Shown here one piece after another: positions 1,494 to 31,730 of a DNA stretch of 64,000 bases. Within the stretch, counting starts at the first letter, position 1. Every line of letters begins with the position of its first letter. The translations under genes and the position numbers were made by a program. The DNA comes from an uncultured delta proteobacterium (GTDB lineage Bacteria; Desulfobacterota; Binatia; UBA9968), in NCBI GenBank assembly GCA_963816145.1, contig CAWFJP010000003.1, forward strand, positions 256,001-320,000, given 5' to 3'. The notes below the pieces were generated by a model. It did not search any database. It had not been told where the DNA came from and saw only the letters and a list, made by a program, of their open reading frames with translations.

Positions 1494-2092
1494 TGTAAGT
1501 CCCTCATCATGCTCTCACACCCTCAGCGCATGCATGTATTTGCCGGTGCGTTTGTCTATCTCGCCTCAGACTCGAACCGACGCCATGATACAGCGTTATT
1601 ATCACCCTGGGTCGGGTGTTGATAGGGCCGCCGAGAAACAACGTTAAGCTACGCAGAGGTCATTGGCGTGTTAATCGGGCAGGGTCTTTGTTTATTTTGA
1701 AGCGAGGACCCGGGCGGTAAATTTGGCTAGGTTACAGCGCGGCACGCGATCTCCTACTTTCGCAGAATTGGTTGAAGTCGACTTCAAGATCGTCGACGAT
1801 TTCTTGGGAGGTGATCAAATACCTCGCTAACGGTTGCGTAGCAGTCGGAGGGATATCTGAATACCCCCCCAAAATGGCAGCATTGGGGGCGCCGGGGGAT
1901 ATTTCATGCGTATCGTTATTAATGGATCGAAACGAAACACGTGATATGCGCGCCGGATTCTCGGGGGTAAACTTAATAGTTAGCCTGGCACTGTCTTGTG
2001 CGTGAGTTCAGCAAGGCCGACACCGCGGCGAATTAAGACGGAGATTTACCGCGAGCGTTACAACGCGGATCAAAAGCGCGCACGCGACCGCG

Positions 2093-2404
2093 TCACCGGA
2101 GGCGTACAACTTGGGCAACATTGCTGTACGCGCTCGTGCCTATTTGATTATACGCGGCAGCCCTATAGCATGCCCCTAGCTTGTAGACATCCGTAACAAG
2201 AGTTTGATTTATGCCTGTGTATGCGATCACTTCCCAACCATCACTGCAGTCATTGGACAGCGTGCGTTCAAGAAAGAACCCCTGCTCGTTATCGGAATTG
2301 TCTTGCCATGTTATCGTTACGGATCGAGCATTGGCAGTTCCCGGTAACATCAACAAATAGAAAAATAAGAAGTAAAGTTGCCAAGAGAATTTCTTTGGTA
2401 GCAT
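2093..2404 (-). CDS. Secreted single fibronectin type III-like domain protein
   Basis: Signal peptide, then ITWQDNSDNEQGFFLER...YRAAAYNQIGTSAYSN pattern. Confidence 0.75.
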   Translation of the reverse strand: MLPKKFSWQLYFLFFYLLMLPGTANARSVTITWQDNSDNEQGFFLERTLSNDCSDGWEVIAYTGINQTLVTDVYKLGACYRAAAYNQIGTSAYSNVAQVVRLR

Positions 2405-2770
2405 CGAAAGCCTCCACCCGAAAGCGGACTGAATTTAGAAGTTCTAAAAAAGACCTTAGTAATGCTTTTGTAGTTACTATCAACAGGATTTGTTGTCAAT
2501 CAAAGTCTGGCCGGACGCCGCGGTTGGCGGAAACAATTATCGAGGCAAAGGCGAAGCAAGATATTGCGGCGGCGCAGGCCGGGTGAAAATCAGAGGGGCC
2601 GTTGCCGCGTTGACAAATAACGAGTTCGCCGCGCTTTTGGCCGAGGCGCTCCGGTTAGCTAGATCGGTGAGCTCTGTAATTGAATTGAATGTACAGGTTT
2701 TATCCTGAATGCGAGCGCGGAGAGATCAGGCAATTGCAATGAGAGTTGAGAGGAAAGGGATTGGGGGATT

Positions 2771-3820
2771 AGGGTCAAATCTTTACTTAAGGCGTAAGCT
2801 CTCGTCAATCTCCGTCATAGTCATACCCATCCGTTTATCGAGGTCTGCCTTCTCCCGAATCCGCTTGCGCTCCCGGCTCACCGTCGTGTAGTCCAATCCG
2901 CCAAGCTCTGCGCCAATCCCCGATTGGCTGAGCTGCCCATGCCGATAAAGCATCTCCATCGCCACCGCTCGTGCGTCCCGATTCCCAATCCGCTTTGCCC
3001 TGATCTCGGTCTCCTTCACTCCCAAGCGCCGGCACACCTCTTTGATGATGTCCGCCGCGCTCTTGGCCGCAAACTCCCTGACCGACGGCTGTTCGCGGGA
3101 GACTCCCCCTTCGCCAACCCTGTCTTTGATCCTTTCGACAAACTTCTCTTGCCCCAATACCACTTGCCCGCTGACGTTTTTCCACGGCGTGTCGTATCCG
3201 CGCTCGATCCCGTCGGCGACAAACTCTGCGTACTTCTTTCGACTCCCACCGACCCGCCCGAGCACCATTTCGTAGCGCACCCACGGCTGCTTGCTAGCCG
3301 CTTTGACGTATCCCGGTAGGCTGCTCCATCGATAGCGCTCCAAATATCGAATCTGCTCTCTGACGTTCTTGCCATGATAGCTCTTTAACCGCACCGGATT
3401 TAGGTGAACGTAGCGGCTGAGCTCTAACAGATAGCTGTCCTGGTCAACCAGGATGGCTTTGAATCGCCCTTGGTACAGATGCCCGACACGGCGATGGCGG
3501 CGGTTAAATGCGGCGGTGTAGCTGATATTAAAATGGCGCATGAACTCGGAGAGATTGGCCTTGGGCGTGGCCACCAGCAAATGAAAGTGGTTGGCCATGA
3601 GCACATAGGCGTGAAGCTCGACTTGGTAGGTGGCGAGCGAGCCTCGCAGCTTCTCCAAGAATACTGTTCGATCCCGGTCGTCGCGGTAGATCGCCCGCCG
3701 GTCGTTGCCCCGGCAGGTGACGTGGTAAAAACCGCCGGGAATCAGGATTCTTAGGGGTCGGGTCATGGGCTTCTACTAGCATCGGGTTAGGGCGGAAAGC
3801 AAGAGTAAAGATTTGACCCT
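2771..3820. mobile_element. RAYT/Y1-transposase element bounded by 17-bp perfect inverted repeats
   Basis: AGGGTCAAATCTTTACT at 2771-2787 and its reverse complement AGTAAAGATTTGACCCT at 3804-3820 enclose the transposase gene. Confidence 0.8.
2783..3766 (-). CDS. REP-associated tyrosine (Y1 HUH) transposase with C-terminal HTH
   Basis: YHVTCRGN, HUH motif NHFHLL, YVHLNPVR, YRWSS; C-terminal SQSGIGAELGGLDYTTVSR helix-turn-helix of DnaA-C/TrpR type. Confidence 0.92.
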   Translation of the reverse strand: MTRPLRILIPGGFYHVTCRGNDRRAIYRDDRDRTVFLEKLRGSLATYQVELHAYVLMANHFHLLVATPKANLSEFMRHFNISYTAAFNRRHRRVGHLYQGRFKAILVDQDSYLLELSRYVHLNPVRLKSYHGKNVREQIRYLERYRWSSLPGYVKAASKQPWVRYEMVLGRVGGSRKKYAEFVADGIERGYDTPWKNVSGQVVLGQEKFVERIKDRVGEGGVSREQPSVREFAAKSAADIIKEVCRRLGVKETEIRAKRIGNRDARAVAMEMLYRHGQLSQSGIGAELGGLDYTTVSRERKRIREKADLDKRMGMTMTEIDESLRLK

Positions 3821-3882
3821 TAACCTGTTAACCTGCTTCTTAACCTGCTTACTTAACTTGCTTAACCCCTTGACCCTCAACC
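3817..3882 (+). repeat. Degenerate tandem array of TTAACCTG(C)-like units abutting the right inverted repeat
   Basis: ttaacctg ttaacctgc ttc ttaacctgc ttac ttaacttgc ttaacccc ttgaccct caacc. Confidence 0.85.
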
Positions 3883-4022
3883 GCTCAGCCGTGACCATAA
3901 GAAAACGCCCCAGCTTCATCAACTTGTATCGTGGTATCGCACTGGGTTACAAGTTGGATTGGCAGATCCCCGCAGGATGCGGAATGAATACACTTACTTT
4001 AAGTGAACCTCTGAGAAACAGT

Positions 4023-5987
4023 ATGAAGCTACCTTTTGATCAAGAAGCTATACGGGCCAAATGTTTTCATTCCTCCGGGAACTTTGTCGAGTTTCCTAGA
4101 GACGATGTCGAGCGAACTATTCCGGAGCGTTTTGAGAAAATTGTGGCACAGCATCCTCATCGACTCGCCATAAAGACCTCTAAGCAAGCTATAACTTACG
4201 CTGAGTTGAACGCGTCAGCTAATCGTGTGGCTCGATACATCCTAGACATTCGAGGTGAGAGCAACGAGCCTGTTGCGATTCTTCTTGGTCATGATGCGGC
4301 TATCATCGTCACAATTTTAGCATCTCTTAAGGCGGGCAAAATCTATGTTCCTCTTGATCCTGCTTATCCGCTATCGAGAAACGCTCAGATCTTGCAACAT
4401 TCGCAGGCTCGATTGATTTTGACGGATAGCACACATATCCGGTTAGCCGATCAATTGGCGGAGAATGCAATCGAAGTAATCGGCGTCGACGATATCCCCG
4501 ACAATCTATCGCGAGACAACCCCGATCTCGCCCTACCGCCCGATACGCTGGCGTGGATTCTATACACCTCCGGTACAACAGGGAACCCAAAGGGTATAGT
4601 TCAAAGCCACCGGTCTGTGCTTCAAGAAACGTTGATCTATACAAATCTAGCCCACATCAGTCTCGATGATCGGCTGGCACTTGTTTCGTCTTGTAGCTTT
4701 TCTGACTCGATCGGCACGATCAATGGCACCCTCCTTAACGGTGCAAGGCTTGTTCTTGTCGATATTCGTAGTGAAGGACTGACTGCGCTTGCCGACCGAC
4801 TACTTATAGATTGCGTTTCGATCTACCGATCCGTTCCGACTGTTTTCCGCCACTTCGCCGATATCGTGGCGAGAGAGCAGCAGTTTCCCAGTCTTCGTCT
4901 TATTTACCTGGTTGGTGAAACAGTCAACAAGACTCATGTAGAGCAGTACAGGAAATCGTTTTCGCGTGACTGTATTTTGCTCAACGTACTTGGATCAACG
5001 GAAGCACTCACGTTTAGGATATTTTTCATGGACATGGAGACTGAAATGAGCGGTTTGGACGTACCTGTTGGGTATGCGGTGGATGGCAAGGAAGTCGTCT
5101 TAGTGAATGACGAAGTGCAGGATGCGGGGTGCGGCTCGATTGGCGAAATTGCGGTGAAAAGTCGCTATCTGGCACAAGGTTATTGGCGCAACCCTATGGC
5201 GACCCGCGATAAGTTCTTGCCGGATCCGGACGGAGGGCTCGAGCGTCTTTATCTTACCGGTGATATGGGTCGCATGGCGCCCGACGGGTGTCTATTCCAT
5301 CTGGGACGTAAAGATTTTCAGGTGAAAATAAGAGGCTACCGGGTGGAACTGGGCGAGATTGAAATGGCGCTTCATAATCATGATGGGGTGAAAGAAGCGG
5401 CGGTAACATCCGATGAGGACCATCTTGGTGAAACCCGGATAACAGCGTATTTTGTCTCTAGCAGGGAGCCTGCACCTACCACAAGCGATTTGCGGAACTT
5501 CTTGCAGGATAAATTACCGGAATACATGCTTCCCTCAACTTTCATCGCGATGGATTCGTTCCCGCTTACTGAGACAGGCAAACTGGATCGCCGAGCGCTA
5601 CCGATCGCGAGTCGAGCTAAAACCGAGCCAGGTATTTTTGTGGCTGCACCGACAACCGCCTTAGAAAAGCAACTCGTCGAGAATTGGAGAGAGGTGCTGA
5701 AAATTGACGCCCTAGGCATTTACGACAACTTCTTTGATCTGGGAGGCCATTCGCTTGCTGCCATGCGAATTGTATCTCGTGTTTTCCAGCAATTCCAACT
5801 ACAGATTCCACTTCAAGCCCTATTTCAGTCGCCAACGGTGGCTGATATGGCGGCTGTAATTGCCGAGCATCTAGACGAACCATTAGGAAGCGAAGAGTTG
5901 GAGGATATTTTGCACGAAATTGAATCGTTGTCCGACGAACAAGCGCAGCGGCTTGTGGGGGAACAGCAAAACACTTCCAAAGTCTAA
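4023..5987 (+). CDS. Stand-alone NRPS-like adenylation-thiolation didomain protein
   Basis: YTSGTTGNPKG, YLTGD, GRKDFQVKIRGYRVELGEIE, GKLDR, carrier motif FFDLGGHSL; no condensation domain. Start set at 4023 by alignment with the paralog. Confidence 0.9.
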   Translation: MKLPFDQEAIRAKCFHSSGNFVEFPRDDVERTIPERFEKIVAQHPHRLAIKTSKQAITYAELNASANRVARYILDIRGESNEPVAILLGHDAAIIVTILASLKAGKIYVPLDPAYPLSRNAQILQHSQARLILTDSTHIRLADQLAENAIEVIGVDDIPDNLSRDNPDLALPPDTLAWILYTSGTTGNPKGIVQSHRSVLQETLIYTNLAHISLDDRLALVSSCSFSDSIGTINGTLLNGARLVLVDIRSEGLTALADRLLIDCVSIYRSVPTVFRHFADIVAREQQFPSLRLIYLVGETVNKTHVEQYRKSFSRDCILLNVLGSTEALTFRIFFMDMETEMSGLDVPVGYAVDGKEVVLVNDEVQDAGCGSIGEIAVKSRYLAQGYWRNPMATRDKFLPDPDGGLERLYLTGDMGRMAPDGCLFHLGRKDFQVKIRGYRVELGEIEMALHNHDGVKEAAVTSDEDHLGETRITAYFVSSREPAPTTSDLRNFLQDKLPEYMLPSTFIAMDSFPLTETGKLDRRALPIASRAKTEPGIFVAAPTTALEKQLVENWREVLKIDALGIYDNFFDLGGHSLAAMRIVSRVFQQFQLQIPLQALFQSPTVADMAAVIAEHLDEPLGSEELEDILHEIESLSDEQAQRLVGEQQNTSKV

Positions 5988-6586: not shown

Positions 6587-8548
6587 ATGAAGTTGCCGCC
6601 TGACCAACAAGCAATACGGGCCAAGTGCTTCCACCCATCGGGAAAATTCGTCGAGTTTCCTAAGGATGACGTCGAGACATCGGTTCCGGAGCGTTTTGAA
6701 AAGGTTGTGCGCATTAACCCCGATCGGATTGCCGTCAAAATAGACGACACGGCCCTAACGTACGATGCGTTGAACAAAGTGGCAAACCGAGTAGCGCGTT
6801 TGCTTGTCGATAGGCTTGGTGAACACAATCGTCCAATCGTGATTTTCTCGGAGCAAACCTTAGCGGCGGTAATATTCTCTCTGGCGATCTGGAAATCAGG
6901 CAAGATTTTGGTTGCGGTCGAACCCAGCTCTTTTTTGCCGGCGATTTTATCGAAAATCGAGGCCGCGCAAGCGAACGTGATCTTAACTACCGGCGATAAT
7001 TTGTCCCTTGCGCTAGAATTAACAAGAAAGACCACCAGTCAGATTATAAACATAGACCCATCCGTAATTGATCTGGCCGATGGCAATCTGAACTTAAAAA
7101 TCCGTAGCGAAGCGCTGGCTGAAATTCGTTTTAGTTCGGGTTCCACCGGTAAACCGAAAGGGGTTGTTCGTAGTCATCGAGTGCTTTTAGTTTCTGCCCG
7201 GTCGGCAATCAATTCGGCTCACATTTGTTGTGATGATCGAGTGGTCGCTTTGACTAATCTCAGCTTTGGTAGCCACACTCTTCGTAAAGGTTTACTCAGT
7301 GGATCGGCCATTTTTCCCTTCGACATCAAGAAACACGGTATCCAGGACTTAGCGCGATTGTTAAACAAAGAGAATATAACTTGTTACGAATCCGTTCCAT
7401 CGAGCTTTCGATATCTGGTCGGGGAGTTGGACGGAACCATCGCATTTCCGTCAATGCGCCTGATACAGTTTGCAGGCGAGCCATTGTACAGGAGCGATGT
7501 CGAATCCTATAAGAACTATTTTCCAAACCAATGTATTTTGGTCAATCGATTAAGCGCTGGCGAAGTGGGCAACATCTGCCAATTGTTTATTGACAAGGAT
7601 ACAACGATTGATACGCCGCTTGTGCCGGTGGGTTATCCCGTTGAGGGCAAAAGTGTTGTCTTATTAAACGATGAGGGCAAACAAACCAGACTGAACGAAG
7701 TGGGTGAAATCGCGGTGAGAAGCCAGCTTCTGCCCTCAGGGTATTGGAACAATACCGATCTTACAGAAGCCAAATTTCACAACGATCCGGCAACGGGGGA
7801 GACAGTATACTTAACCGGCGACCTGGGAATGGTATCGCACGACGGACTAATTCTGCATCTAGGTAGGAAGGATAATGAAGTAAAGATTAGAGGAATGAAA
7901 GTGGAGTTGTCAGGAATTGACGCTACACTGGTTGGACACGACGGAATCGCAGAAGCCGTCGTTTTGCTTACGACGGATAAAGACCTGGGGGAAAGTCTGG
8001 TGGCGTATATCGTTCCAACTCACGGCAAACGACCAACTGTGGGAGAGCTTCGACAATTTCTCCGAAGCTCTTTACCTGACTATATGGTGCCATCGAAGTT
8101 CATGTTTTTAGATTCGTTGCCGCTAATGCCGAGTGGCAAGATAGATCGTTCGGCGCTTCCAGACCCAGCCGGCAAAAGACCGGAGATTGACACTCCCTTT
8201 GTGGCGCCCCACAATCCCATAGAAGAACGACTGGCTAGGATTTGGGCAGACGTTCTTGCGCTCGATGAAGTTGGCACAGACGACAATTTCTTCGATCTTG
8301 GAGGCCACTCCTTGGCAGCTACTAGGGTTGTGTCCCGGGTTATCCAGCAGTTTCAGTTAGAAATACCGCTGCAGTCACTGTTTGAATCTCCAACCATTGC
8401 GGATATGGCATCAGTGATCACGGCTCATCAGGGAAACACTTTAGACGAGCAAGGCTTGGCGACACTATTGAACGAATTAGAATCACTGTCCGACGAAGAG
8501 GCCCAGCGGCTTGTAGGCGAACAGCGTAACGAAAACTCCGAGGAGTAA
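6587..8548 (+). CDS. Second stand-alone adenylation-thiolation didomain protein
   Basis: FSSGSTGKPKG, YLTGD, GRKDNEVKIRG, GKIDR, FFDLGGHSL; N- and C-termini closely match 4023..5987. Confidence 0.9.
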   Translation: MKLPPDQQAIRAKCFHPSGKFVEFPKDDVETSVPERFEKVVRINPDRIAVKIDDTALTYDALNKVANRVARLLVDRLGEHNRPIVIFSEQTLAAVIFSLAIWKSGKILVAVEPSSFLPAILSKIEAAQANVILTTGDNLSLALELTRKTTSQIINIDPSVIDLADGNLNLKIRSEALAEIRFSSGSTGKPKGVVRSHRVLLVSARSAINSAHICCDDRVVALTNLSFGSHTLRKGLLSGSAIFPFDIKKHGIQDLARLLNKENITCYESVPSSFRYLVGELDGTIAFPSMRLIQFAGEPLYRSDVESYKNYFPNQCILVNRLSAGEVGNICQLFIDKDTTIDTPLVPVGYPVEGKSVVLLNDEGKQTRLNEVGEIAVRSQLLPSGYWNNTDLTEAKFHNDPATGETVYLTGDLGMVSHDGLILHLGRKDNEVKIRGMKVELSGIDATLVGHDGIAEAVVLLTTDKDLGESLVAYIVPTHGKRPTVGELRQFLRSSLPDYMVPSKFMFLDSLPLMPSGKIDRSALPDPAGKRPEIDTPFVAPHNPIEERLARIWADVLALDEVGTDDNFFDLGGHSLAATRVVSRVIQQFQLEIPLQSLFESPTIADMASVITAHQGNTLDEQGLATLLNELESLSDEEAQRLVGEQRNENSEE

Positions 8549-18573: not shown

Positions 18574-18872
18574 TTTCACCACCAAGTCACGAAGAGCACG
18601 AAGTTCGGAGAAATAATTGCTCGAACCCTTCGTGTCCTTCGTGCCTCCTTAGAAAATAACTTTCGGGGGATGATCTCCACCCAAATGGAAGAGGCCACCC
18701 GAGGTTCCGTCATACCCGCGGAAGCGGGTATCCAGGCTAATTCGGCGGTGAATCACCCTGGATTCCCGCCTGCGCGGGAATGACGATTCGAACAGAGTAA
18801 CAGGTGGAGGGGAATCCATCTGTTTTCAAAGTCTGTAGACGAGCGCAAGCTCATAAACGCTTTGTGGTGAAA
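18574..18872. repeat. Composite repeat: CACGAAG-type element interrupted by an insert carrying a GTCAT-type pair
   Basis: tttcaccaccaag at 18574 pairs with ctttgtggtgaaa at 18860; inner pair at 18709-18784. Confidence 0.7.
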
Positions 18873-31627: not shown

Positions 31628-31705
31628 CCACGAAGGCACGAAGGACACGAAGGTTTCGGATAAACTTGTTTAAACTTCGTGCCCTTCGTGTCCTTCGTGG
31701 TGAAA
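31628..31705. repeat. CACGAAG-type iterated inverted repeat (uninterrupted copy)
   Basis: ccacgaaggcacgaaggacacgaag...cttcgtgcccttcgtgtccttcgtgg. Confidence 0.8.
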
Positions 31706-31730
31706 TAATCTTCCCCATGAAAGCAGAAAC

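Follow-up and report, generated by a model that had tools for sequence, protein, structure and literature searches.

A 64,000-nt stretch of DNA from an uncultured delta proteobacterium (Desulfobacterota, Binatia; contig CAWFJP010000003.1, positions 256,001 to 320,000 of the forward strand), hereafter the window, carries a TIRtron: one intact TIRYT gene, for a tyrosine transposase of the Y1 HUH type, flanked on both sides by a conserved terminal inverted repeat. The DNA immediately outside both repeats is stuttered, and the stutter is a trait of the family; small arrays recur outside the ends throughout it. In the typical picture, a short piece of flank and the first bases of the repeat are tandemly repeated just outside the repeat tip. 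We assign a probability of about 0.6 to the reading that these arrays are scars of nicking, short primer extension and rejoining by the element's own transposase, one end at a time.

The element and its arrays lie at the following window coordinates:

2757..2770, no strand: left stutter, GGGATT-GG-GGGATT, about two copies of 5-6 nt abutting the tip
2766..2787, plus strand: left terminal inverted repeat, flanking the gene on its 3' side; inward-reading tip AGGGTCAAATC; perfect core 2771-2787
2783..3766, minus strand: TIRYT gene, 327 aa, Y1 HUH tyrosine transposase with a helix-turn-helix (HTH) like domain IV of DnaA
3804..3825, minus strand: right terminal inverted repeat, flanking the gene on its 5' side; inward-reading tip on the minus strand; perfect core 3804-3820
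3820..3882, no strand: right stutter array, five TTAAC(C)-headed units starting at 3820, 3828, 3840, 3853 and 3862 (repeat families D1 and D2)
3870..3877, no strand: partial tip copy TTGACCCT at the outer end of the right array (repeat family D12)

An earlier reading of this stretch, made from sequence only, had reported a right array of micro-repeats ending in a second copy of the tip, and a shorter stutter on the left; both were recovered. Tandem Repeats Finder described the right array as 2.9 copies of period 13 (92%, 3828-3864) and 2.0 copies of period 8 (3820-3835), and the second tip copy (3870-3882, TTGACCCTCAACC) is 92% like 3813-3825 (family D12). The left stutter taken alone is within chance and too short for significance. 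It may be interpreted by analogy with the 54 of 186 homologous ends that carry junction-spanning repeats, and a related solo repeat in the host genome has GCGGAATT-GCGGAATT at the matching position.

Stuttered flanks across the family

Two sets of homologous loci were compared. Set 1 held 109 loci, 29 from related genomes and 80 from metagenomes; set 2 held 80 loci from species-representative genomes, assigned by record title to Desulfobacterales, Nitrospirales, Acidobacteriota, Planctomycetota, Verrucomicrobiia, many Gammaproteobacteria and further groups. Locus L142 of set 2 and locus L044 of set 1 are on the same contig. Tallies over related genomes, here and in the empty-site search below, include two unpublished genomes (G005 and G035), whose sequence enters no claim. 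Where both sides of the gene were readable, an inverted repeat with a score of at least 12 was found at 66 of 94 loci in set 1 and at 56 of 72 in set 2, and a repeat of GGGTCA type at 64 of 94 and 52 of 72, respectively. In most loci the tip, GGGGTCA(A/G)(A/G)TC, stands about 45-66 nt ahead of the ATG and, on the other side, within about 30 nt past the stop; its conservation persists to 33% protein identity.

The flanks of these repeats were then compared with control DNA, using a test interval made of the last 43 nt of flank and 7 nt of the tip. Set 1 supplied 127 ends, of which 114 had at least 83 nt of flank and 105 were unique. A local direct repeat of at least 10 nt was present at 25 of the 105 unique ends, as compared to 14 of 3342 random intervals from the same loci, none of 132 within elements, and 5 of 105 in flank 33-83 nt further out. 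An exact repeat of at least 9 nt of the junction suffix was present at 15 of 105 ends, against 1 of 3246 random positions and 25 of 7346 other GGG sites. The independent set 2, in which ends were not de-duplicated, gave 29 of 104 ends versus 13 of 2515 controls; its isolates include Rheinheimera lutimaris (L193), Marinobacterium aestuariivivens (L201), Marinobacter halodurans (L215) and a Psychromonas sp. (L217). Overall, local repeats were 50-60 times commoner beside homologous tips than in control intervals. The sequence-only reading had proposed to test whether flanks of homologous inverted repeats are rich in locus-specific micro-duplications, and the strong enrichment in both sets is in its favor.

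Anatomy of the stutter

In the two sets together, an exact repeat of at least 8 nt with its proximal copy over the junction was found at 54 of 186 unique ends, and 32 of these 54 were perfect tandems. The units consist of 5-12 nt of flank followed by the first nucleotides of the repeat tip. Their left boundary lay 5-12 nt outside the G-run in 47 of the 54 cases, most often at 7 or 9 nt (13 cases each); the lower limit of this range is partly due to the 8-nt threshold, the rarity of a longer reach is not. At the right boundary, a cluster at the start of the G-run (15 of 54) accompanied the single commonest position, directly after GGGTCA; the rest were spread through the repeat, as far as 20 nt in. 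Partial copies of the tip were counted separately, by seeding with GGTC: 110 were found, in the flanks of 69 of 188 ends. Forty-five of them stop at GGTC, which is about chance, and of the 65 that reach GGTCA or beyond, 37 end exactly there and 28 are longer.

Individual loci illustrate the range of units. At L068, two abutting copies of ATTTATAGGGTCA are followed by AATC; at L112, which adjoins what appears by eye to be the 3' end of a tRNA gene, the unit is 31 nt long and includes 14 nt of the repeat; at L115 it is 35 nt long. No consistent microhomology was seen where the perfect tandems begin and end, and the units at the two ends of one element are unrelated (no target duplication). Flanks are purine/G-rich, with purines prevailing in both when each is read inward. 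In three contexts (L123, L124 and L126) the element takes along the 9 nt that precede GGGG; its true terminus may be the left boundary, 7-9 nt outside the G-run. Copying of flank from one end of the element to the other was considered and rejected: inverted similarity between flanks was significant only to about 6 nt outside the G-run, and was weak there (56% at position 1, about 35% at positions 3-6). Our reading is that this similarity probably represents a slightly longer inverted repeat, not templating.

Because the units contain pieces of the tip, and differ between near-identical loci, they arise in place at the tip. It is very improbable that the arrays are older than the element and were chosen by it, through a preference for inserting into short tandem repeats or tip-like sequence. 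Relatives in the IS200/IS605 family do pick their targets by sequence, the composition of the flanks is biased toward purines, and no empty site was found in 41 related genomes, where a DNA search with window 1700-5200 returned only the transposase gene and short repeated pieces, with no syntenic flank. However, the units hold up to 27 nt of the element's repeat joined to the true tip-abutting piece of flank, unit number varies among otherwise identical loci, and purine-richness toward the inside of both flanks is impossible from a single prior target.

Variation at the window and between assemblies

One locus is represented by three assemblies (L059, L060 and L061; 99.5% identical over 2971 nt and 99.0% over 1574 nt), of which L060 alone has an extra 10-nt unit, CGGAGTGGGG, at the 5' tip. 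Variation at the window itself was sought in contigs of four public metagenome runs over positions 2300-4400. A contig of run X2 is without exactly the 11-nt unit at 3828; a contig of run X3 (record 23) covers 3755-4011, with its tabulated differences at 3831-3839, inside the array; and a contig of run X1 goes from 2594 to the tip at 2770 by way of another stutter, 39 nt long, with units like GGAACTAG, and is missing 175 nt of the window's flank. The evidence of these contigs is weak but concordant: the array is real and it varies. Taken with the extra unit of L060, these differences suggest that the process is ongoing.

The sequence-only reading had named an assembly artefact as something to be checked, and sequence data back the array, through the independent public-run contigs that cover it and the recurrence of the structure in isolates. 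Most loci do come from short-read metagenome assemblies, and one (L092) ends with a copy of its own start, so misassembly at a repeated element deserves mention; yet isolate genomes have the same structures, the 186 unique ends derive from hundreds of independent assemblies, and the X3 contig spans the window's array. We regard an artefact as hardly credible.

The left flank of the element shows a further change. The left arm of a palindrome with an 18-bp stem (GGTTTTAWCCTGAATGCG ... CGCATTCAGGWTAAAACC) is present at 2693-2716, about 55 nt before the element, and the right arm is absent from the window; an intact copy is at C14:679672-679739 (contig:positions), and in the X2 and X3 contigs the right arm follows 2747. 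The DNA beside the left tip therefore seems to have lost sequence in this genome.

Origin of the arrays

Two features, the presence of element sequence in the units and the unrelatedness of the units at the two ends, mean that the arrays were made after insertion. The data call for a process that is end-specific, post-insertion and recurrent, that joins DNA without microhomology, and that has preferred break points. Y1 HUH chemistry offers this: the enzyme cuts, with its tyrosine covalently joined to the 5' phosphate and the 3'-OH left free, and then rejoins. In the reconstruction that we prefer, the Y1 enzyme would nick one strand near the tip and stay on the 5' end through its tyrosine; a host polymerase would extend the free 3'-OH by about 8-35 nt across the junction; and the new 3' end, released by a second cut or by a pause, would rejoin the enzyme-bound 5' end. 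Each round would add one more unit in tandem, copied from 5-12 nt of flank and the first 0-27 nt of the repeat, and repeated rounds would move older, decaying copies outward. The left boundary would then correspond to the first cut, 7-9 nt outside the G-run, and the right boundary to the second cut or pause, most often after GGGGTCA.

A close counterpart has been published for the REP-associated tyrosine transposases (RAYTs; REP, repetitive extragenic palindrome). The protein TnpA-REP carries out cleavage in vitro, with 5'-phosphotyrosine intermediates and strand transfer, and a cut, polymerase extension, a second cut and attack on the tyrosine-5'-phosphate were proposed to explain the tandem amplification of bacterial interspersed mosaic elements (BIMEs) (Ton-Hoang et al. 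2012, PMC3333891; statements taken from this and the other published work discussed here refer to the passages covered). The reading of the arrays as enzyme scars matches this amplification model.

Several observations weigh against that reading. We infer the transposase as the agent, and the order of the chemical steps, by linking gene and scar from sequence alone. Fisher p-values at the 8-nt threshold (9e-20 and 4e-28) overstate the enrichment because related loci are not independent, and at about 70% of ends a stutter is undetectable. HUH enzymes usually require a defined cleavage sequence; the left boundary falls in unconserved sequence, and right boundaries are heterogeneous, with just 12 of 54 directly after GGGTCA. 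The hairpin to be expected of a Y1 substrate is poor here: mean minimum free energy was -1.65 kcal/mol over 188 repeats, no better than shuffled sequence (z -0.28), and in the window's own repeats the hairpin is marginal. Many loci are on metagenome contigs that may be chimeric at repeats, and the X1-X3 variants are single contigs at depth 3-5 from mixed communities.

Two alternatives were weighed. In the first, the G-run, a small hairpin or a protein bound tightly to the repeat would be a roadblock at which the host's replication stalls, at the tip, and slips or restarts; tandem duplications would arise by template slippage, the transposase making no cut. Duplications gather where the G-run begins or after GGGTCA, which fits a pause site; in the GTCAAATC clade the small hairpin has a stem starting at GTCAAA; and the flanks are purine/G-rich. 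Slippage would, however, need microhomology, which the perfect tandems mostly do not have (L112, the 5' end of L068, L115), and at L112 and L115 units reach 31-35 nt, with 14-25 nt of repeat, a length that simple slippage does not readily explain. Overall the hairpin is weak, and no repeats were found inside the element beside identical structure (0 of 132), though selection could remove them there. On balance we consider slippage unlikely, although it is the likeliest of the alternatives. In the second, repeated excision and re-insertion at one target would leave terminal nucleotides behind, building flank-tip-flank arrays. Partial tip copies do end preferentially after GGGTCA, and ends evidently rearrange in near-identical elements that share one flank and not the other (L076/L078, L106/L108, L022/L088; possibly chimeric assemblies). 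Re-insertion should nevertheless give matching units on both sides, and the units are unrelated, with no target duplication; partnerless solo repeats stutter too; and differences of one unit (L060; the 11 nt lacking in X2) are more simply explained by a single tandem duplication or deletion. Such footprints are an improbable source of the arrays. Nick, extension and rejoining by the transposase remains the origin that we prefer.

The transposase and its class

The remaining parts of the element, all on the minus strand, are:

3404..3727, minus strand: Y1 (HUH) catalytic domain, residues 14-121; HUH motif H60-F-H62
2858..3052, minus strand: C-terminal HTH, residues 239-303; like domain IV of DnaA; PF08299
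3767..3803, minus strand: leader, 37 nt, from the right repeat to the ATG

As the sequence-only reading had it, a perfect 17-bp inverted repeat tightly brackets the gene and supplies its stop codon. Both the sequence and the repeat finder give perfect complementarity over 17 nt between 2771-2787 (AGGGTCAAATCTTTACT) and 3804-3820, which the repeat finder stretches to 22 nt at 91% (2766-2787 and 3804-3825). The only long open reading frame between the arms is that of the 327-aa protein (2783-3766, minus strand); its ATG is 37 nt inside the right arm, and its TAA stop (2783-2785) falls within the left arm, in AGTAAAG. In the homologues P0043, P0073 and P0109 the frame continues into the repeat and ends ...KVKI, and by our reading of the repeat sequence its stop would be the TGA of TTTGACCCC. 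Since the frames of homologues enter the repeat, and the window's stop is inside it (2783-2787), the 3' repeat and the C-terminus constrain each other. The element's own promoter is presumed to lie in the leader (3767..3803) together with the repeat: relatives have TTGACA in the inner part of the repeat, 30-40 nt ahead of the start, and a consensus scan found no sigma-70-like site in the window's repeat copy. An outward promoter in the repeat, serving the neighboring gene, was also considered and found no support, the promoter and terminator scan of 2600-4100 being empty. A hairpin that might act as a Y1 substrate in the manner of a REP was not kept among the defining features; the GTCAAATC...TTTGAC clade has a stem of 6-7 bp, and overall the hairpins are no better than shuffles.

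The protein matches the Pfam families Y1_Tnp (PF01797, residues 14-121, 1.4e-13) and Bac_DnaA_C (PF08299, residues 239-303, 32.9 bits against a cut-off of 31.5), with a weak match to HTH_23. H60, H62 and Y119 are invariant in an alignment of 12 sequences (the window's protein and 11 relatives, 37-81% identity); Y119, in RYVHLNP, is by the family motif the probable catalytic tyrosine. Searched by sequence, the solved structures yielded just one weak match, to a DnaA (8btg_A, E-value 0.66), and a fold search was needed. With an AlphaFold2 model (mean pLDDT confidence 81.8), the top solved fold, for the catalytic part, was a REP-associated tyrosine transposase, 4er8_A (TM-score 0.74 on the target), followed by TnpA structures of ISDra2 and IS608 (2a6m, 2xqc, 2vjv). 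The C-terminal domain matched domain IV of DnaA (1j1v_A; target-normalized TM-score 0.91, root-mean-square deviation 1.2 over 93 columns) and 3pvp_B (TM-score 0.86). The HTH presumably holds the enzyme on the double-stranded repeat.

The sequence-only reading had called the element a RAYT transposase with terminal inverted repeats. The Y1 HUH enzyme and the repeats stand; the RAYT label is loose, the protein scoring 74.3 bits with the NCBIfam equivalog REP_Tyr_transpos (NF047646; cut-off 80) and the locus having no GTAG REPs. With transpos_IS200 (NF033573; cut-off 55) the protein scores 18.4 bits. That reading had also allowed that such a subfamily might be catalogued already, and it is: the element is an ordinary member of the TIRYT/TIRtron kind and, by its C-terminal extension, of subclass 2.1.2. 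The terms TIRYT and TIRtron were coined for RAYT-like genes with terminal inverted repeats, which are accompanied by moderately abundant families of solo repeats (Di Nocera, De Gregorio & Rocco 2013, PMC3733652). Subclass 2.1.2 of TnpA-Y1 comprises Y1 proteins with a Bac_DnaA_C, HTH_23 or HTH_28 tail, and subclass 2.1 takes in 20 of 26 TIRYT proteins, with the repeat consensus GGGG[AT][CG]A[CG], or GGGGWSAS, a motif that many of the published TIRYT repeats share, though not every one (Quentin et al. 2018, PMC6006769). A full-text literature search for the two terms gave, among the matches listed, no works beyond these two. The window shares with the TIRYTs and TIRtrons a RAYT-homologous Y1 transposase, terminal inverted repeats instead of REPs, repeats at fixed distances from the gene, a Bac_DnaA_C-like C-terminal HTH and moderately abundant solo repeats, and its anatomy shows no difference from theirs. 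Its tip, AGGGTCAA, agrees with GGGGWSAS in 6 of 8 letters, the first and last being off; among relatives, GGGGTCAG fits and GGGGTCAA agrees in 7 of 8.

The likeness to TnpA-REP of Escherichia coli extends from the nearest solved fold (4er8_A) to a gene placed between inverted cognate repeats, a conserved 5' tetranucleotide that opens the recognition sequence (GTAG there, GGGG here), and the proposed addition of tandem units with flanking DNA by cutting, polymerase extension and strand transfer (PMC3333891). The window differs in having no GTAG and no strong REP hairpin, in its extra HTH and in its score below the NCBIfam cut-off for RAYTs. Its repeat occurs in tens, not hundreds, of copies (13 in the host genome with at most two mismatches, versus >100 per genome for classical REPs), and the amplified unit is a junction piece of 7-35 nt, not a whole REP or BIME.

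Y1 enzymes of the IS200/IS605 family use subterminal hairpins and have no terminal inverted repeats, cleavage occurs some distance from the recognized end structure, and classic RAYTs sit beside GTAG REPs. With IS608 and ISDra2 TnpA the window shares the Y1 HUH fold and the lack of a target-site duplication. Those elements have like-oriented subterminal hairpins, whereas the ends here are truly inverted; the window's protein is 2.5 times longer and has an HTH; and IS200/IS605 peel-and-paste leaves precise junctions, not stutters. The rolling-circle HUH transposons (IS91/ISCR, Helitrons, Replitrons) resemble the present family in ends that act singly, in imprecise or 'fuzzy' ends and in the capture of flanking DNA, and the parallel here is duplications that begin exactly at a repeat tip and continue into the flank (L123/L124; C3:876513-877259). 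Replitrons, with 'fuzzy ends' and variable target duplications, are a loose parallel. These transposons differ in their Y2 or Rep-type proteins, other domain sets and like-oriented ends, and tandem micro-duplication at the junction is not reported for them in the passages covered.

At least 4574 relatives were found at E-values up to 0.001 among 8000 candidates scored, and at least 591 among the 603 pattern matches listed from a genome collection, in many phyla; source annotations read 'REP element-mobilizing transposase RayT', 'REP-associated tyrosine transposase' or 'putative transposase'. The exception to the conserved tip is a genus of the same order (g9), in which none of 17 loci has a GGGTCA-type repeat (L024, L025, L027-L041). 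Exactly one homologue is present in 17 of 19 genomes of this genus (51-55% identity, frames of 337-360 aa), and its synteny is conserved, with flanks 82-92% alike in the nine loci compared. It may be an immobilized or domesticated TIRYT.

Host genome context

The 7.8 Mb host genome has one full copy of the gene, its next paralogue being 42% identical; with a single full copy and no target duplication, the signature of an active insertion sequence is absent. The 13 matches to the repeat's 17-mer at up to two mismatches compare with one for a reversed control, and many of the solo copies carry a stutter of their own. A profile search (nhmmer) with the 29-nt end added few sites to the mismatch search. 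A loose tip pattern proved useless as a census of copies, as chance matches dominate: it gave 142 matches against 37 in the control, mostly chance matches in coding DNA, with a local repeat of at least 8 nt at just 12. Four inward-facing pairs were found with it (the window's element and pairs on C17, at C3:410710 and on C30), of which the 17-mer search recovers only the window's element. The loose pattern misses diverged tips, and did not pair C3:3017 with C3:5363.

Several repeated segments of the host genome have homology that begins exactly at a tip. A unit of 303-310 nt occurs three times in one orientation (C3:875057-875366, 876189-876498 and 877393-877695), and also at the start of a contig (C2:1-90). 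It consists of a repeat-like head, 55 nt with a second copy of GTCAAATC, and a 77-aa open reading frame without a Pfam family; the copies cease to be homologous right at the tip, and each carries its own stutter. Beside one copy, 748 nt of an asparaginase-like gene (named by eye) are duplicated (876513-877259 and 873116-873862, 98%). An integron origin (attC sites and cassettes) for the same-oriented repeats at C3:875-878 kb was rejected, as there is no attC-like imperfect palindrome and homology starts at the tip. Elsewhere on the same contig, 2.35 kb between inward-facing repeats (C3:3017-5363; L220 318-2664) contain no transposase gene. They encode two toxin-antitoxin-like pairs, DUF433 with DUF5615/PIN-like and MazE with PemK/MazF, and the first 837 nt recur at C29:73898-74726 (92%), from 2 nt inside the tip. 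The segment looks like non-autonomous cargo behind TIRYT repeats.

Other loci show changes on one side only. The last 123 nt of L092 (2095 nt) are identical to its own start, as in a circular or tandem form. One contig (L123/L124) has two copies of the element with 740 nt of 3' flank, homology running from 11 nt before the tip. L068 is without 1390 nt that L071 has beside the 3' tip, and keeps, duplicated, the same 8 tip-adjacent nt. Together these loci suggest one-ended events; chimeric assembly is possible.

About 140 nt past the right array begins a gene for an adenylation and carrier protein (AMP-binding, AMP-binding_C, PP-binding), one of several paralogous stand-alone adenylation-thiolation genes, of which a second starts at 6587. 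Its 5' end (4013-4233) recurs at 73-79% in at least five other sites of the host and in related genomes. The window also has two copies (18598-18655 and 31634-31707) of another dispersed palindromic repeat of about 80 nt (CACCACGAAGGCACGAAGGACACGAAGG...CCTTCGTGGTG; reference copy C3:872525-872605), which BLAST matched 86 times in the host genome. This repeat resembles a REPIN or a MITE and has no relation to that of the TIRYT.

Implications

Stuttered flanks were not found as a family trait in any published description. They do not appear in the text covered of PMC3733652 and PMC6006769 (main text); the word 'duplication' occurs there not at all in the former and once, about genes, in the latter, and those of the eight occurrences of 'tandem' in PMC3733652 that lie in the passages covered concern REP clusters and CRISPRs. 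A literature search with the tip sequences gave nothing relevant among the matches listed, and one on Y1 or HUH enzymes and tandem duplication gave nothing on stuttered flanks.

A wider hypothesis, which we put forward as tentative and rather doubtful, is that each TIRYT repeat is an independent, one-ended origin of rolling-circle-like synthesis, primed at the transposase nick, and that the arrays are aborted initiations. If true, the arrays would mark points of cutting and rejoining in vivo, one about 7-9 nt beyond the outer edge of the G-run, the other immediately 3' of GGGGTCA. A longer reaction would give deletions adjacent to the tip, segmental duplications that start exactly at it, and the capture of small cargo, such as toxin-antitoxin cassettes, behind solo repeats. 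The TIRYTs would then be a replicative, flank-remodeling class of Y1 elements, apart from both the peel-and-paste IS200/IS605 elements and the domesticated RAYTs.

We know of no TIRYT-type protein for which activity has been shown. A scar that is present at about three in ten ends, has ordered boundaries and is polymorphic offers a testable prediction of the enzyme's site and mode of action. To our knowledge, the model of cutting, extension and strand transfer for the spread of REPs and BIMEs has been proposed and never demonstrated; the scar would be support for it in vivo. For annotation, the few dozen bases outside such repeats would be hypervariable and made by the element, to be read neither as target sites nor as the regulatory DNA of the neighboring gene. 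For the genomes that carry them, the TIRYTs would, on the wider hypothesis, be an enzyme-driven source of locus-specific, hypervariable micro-repeats beside host genes.

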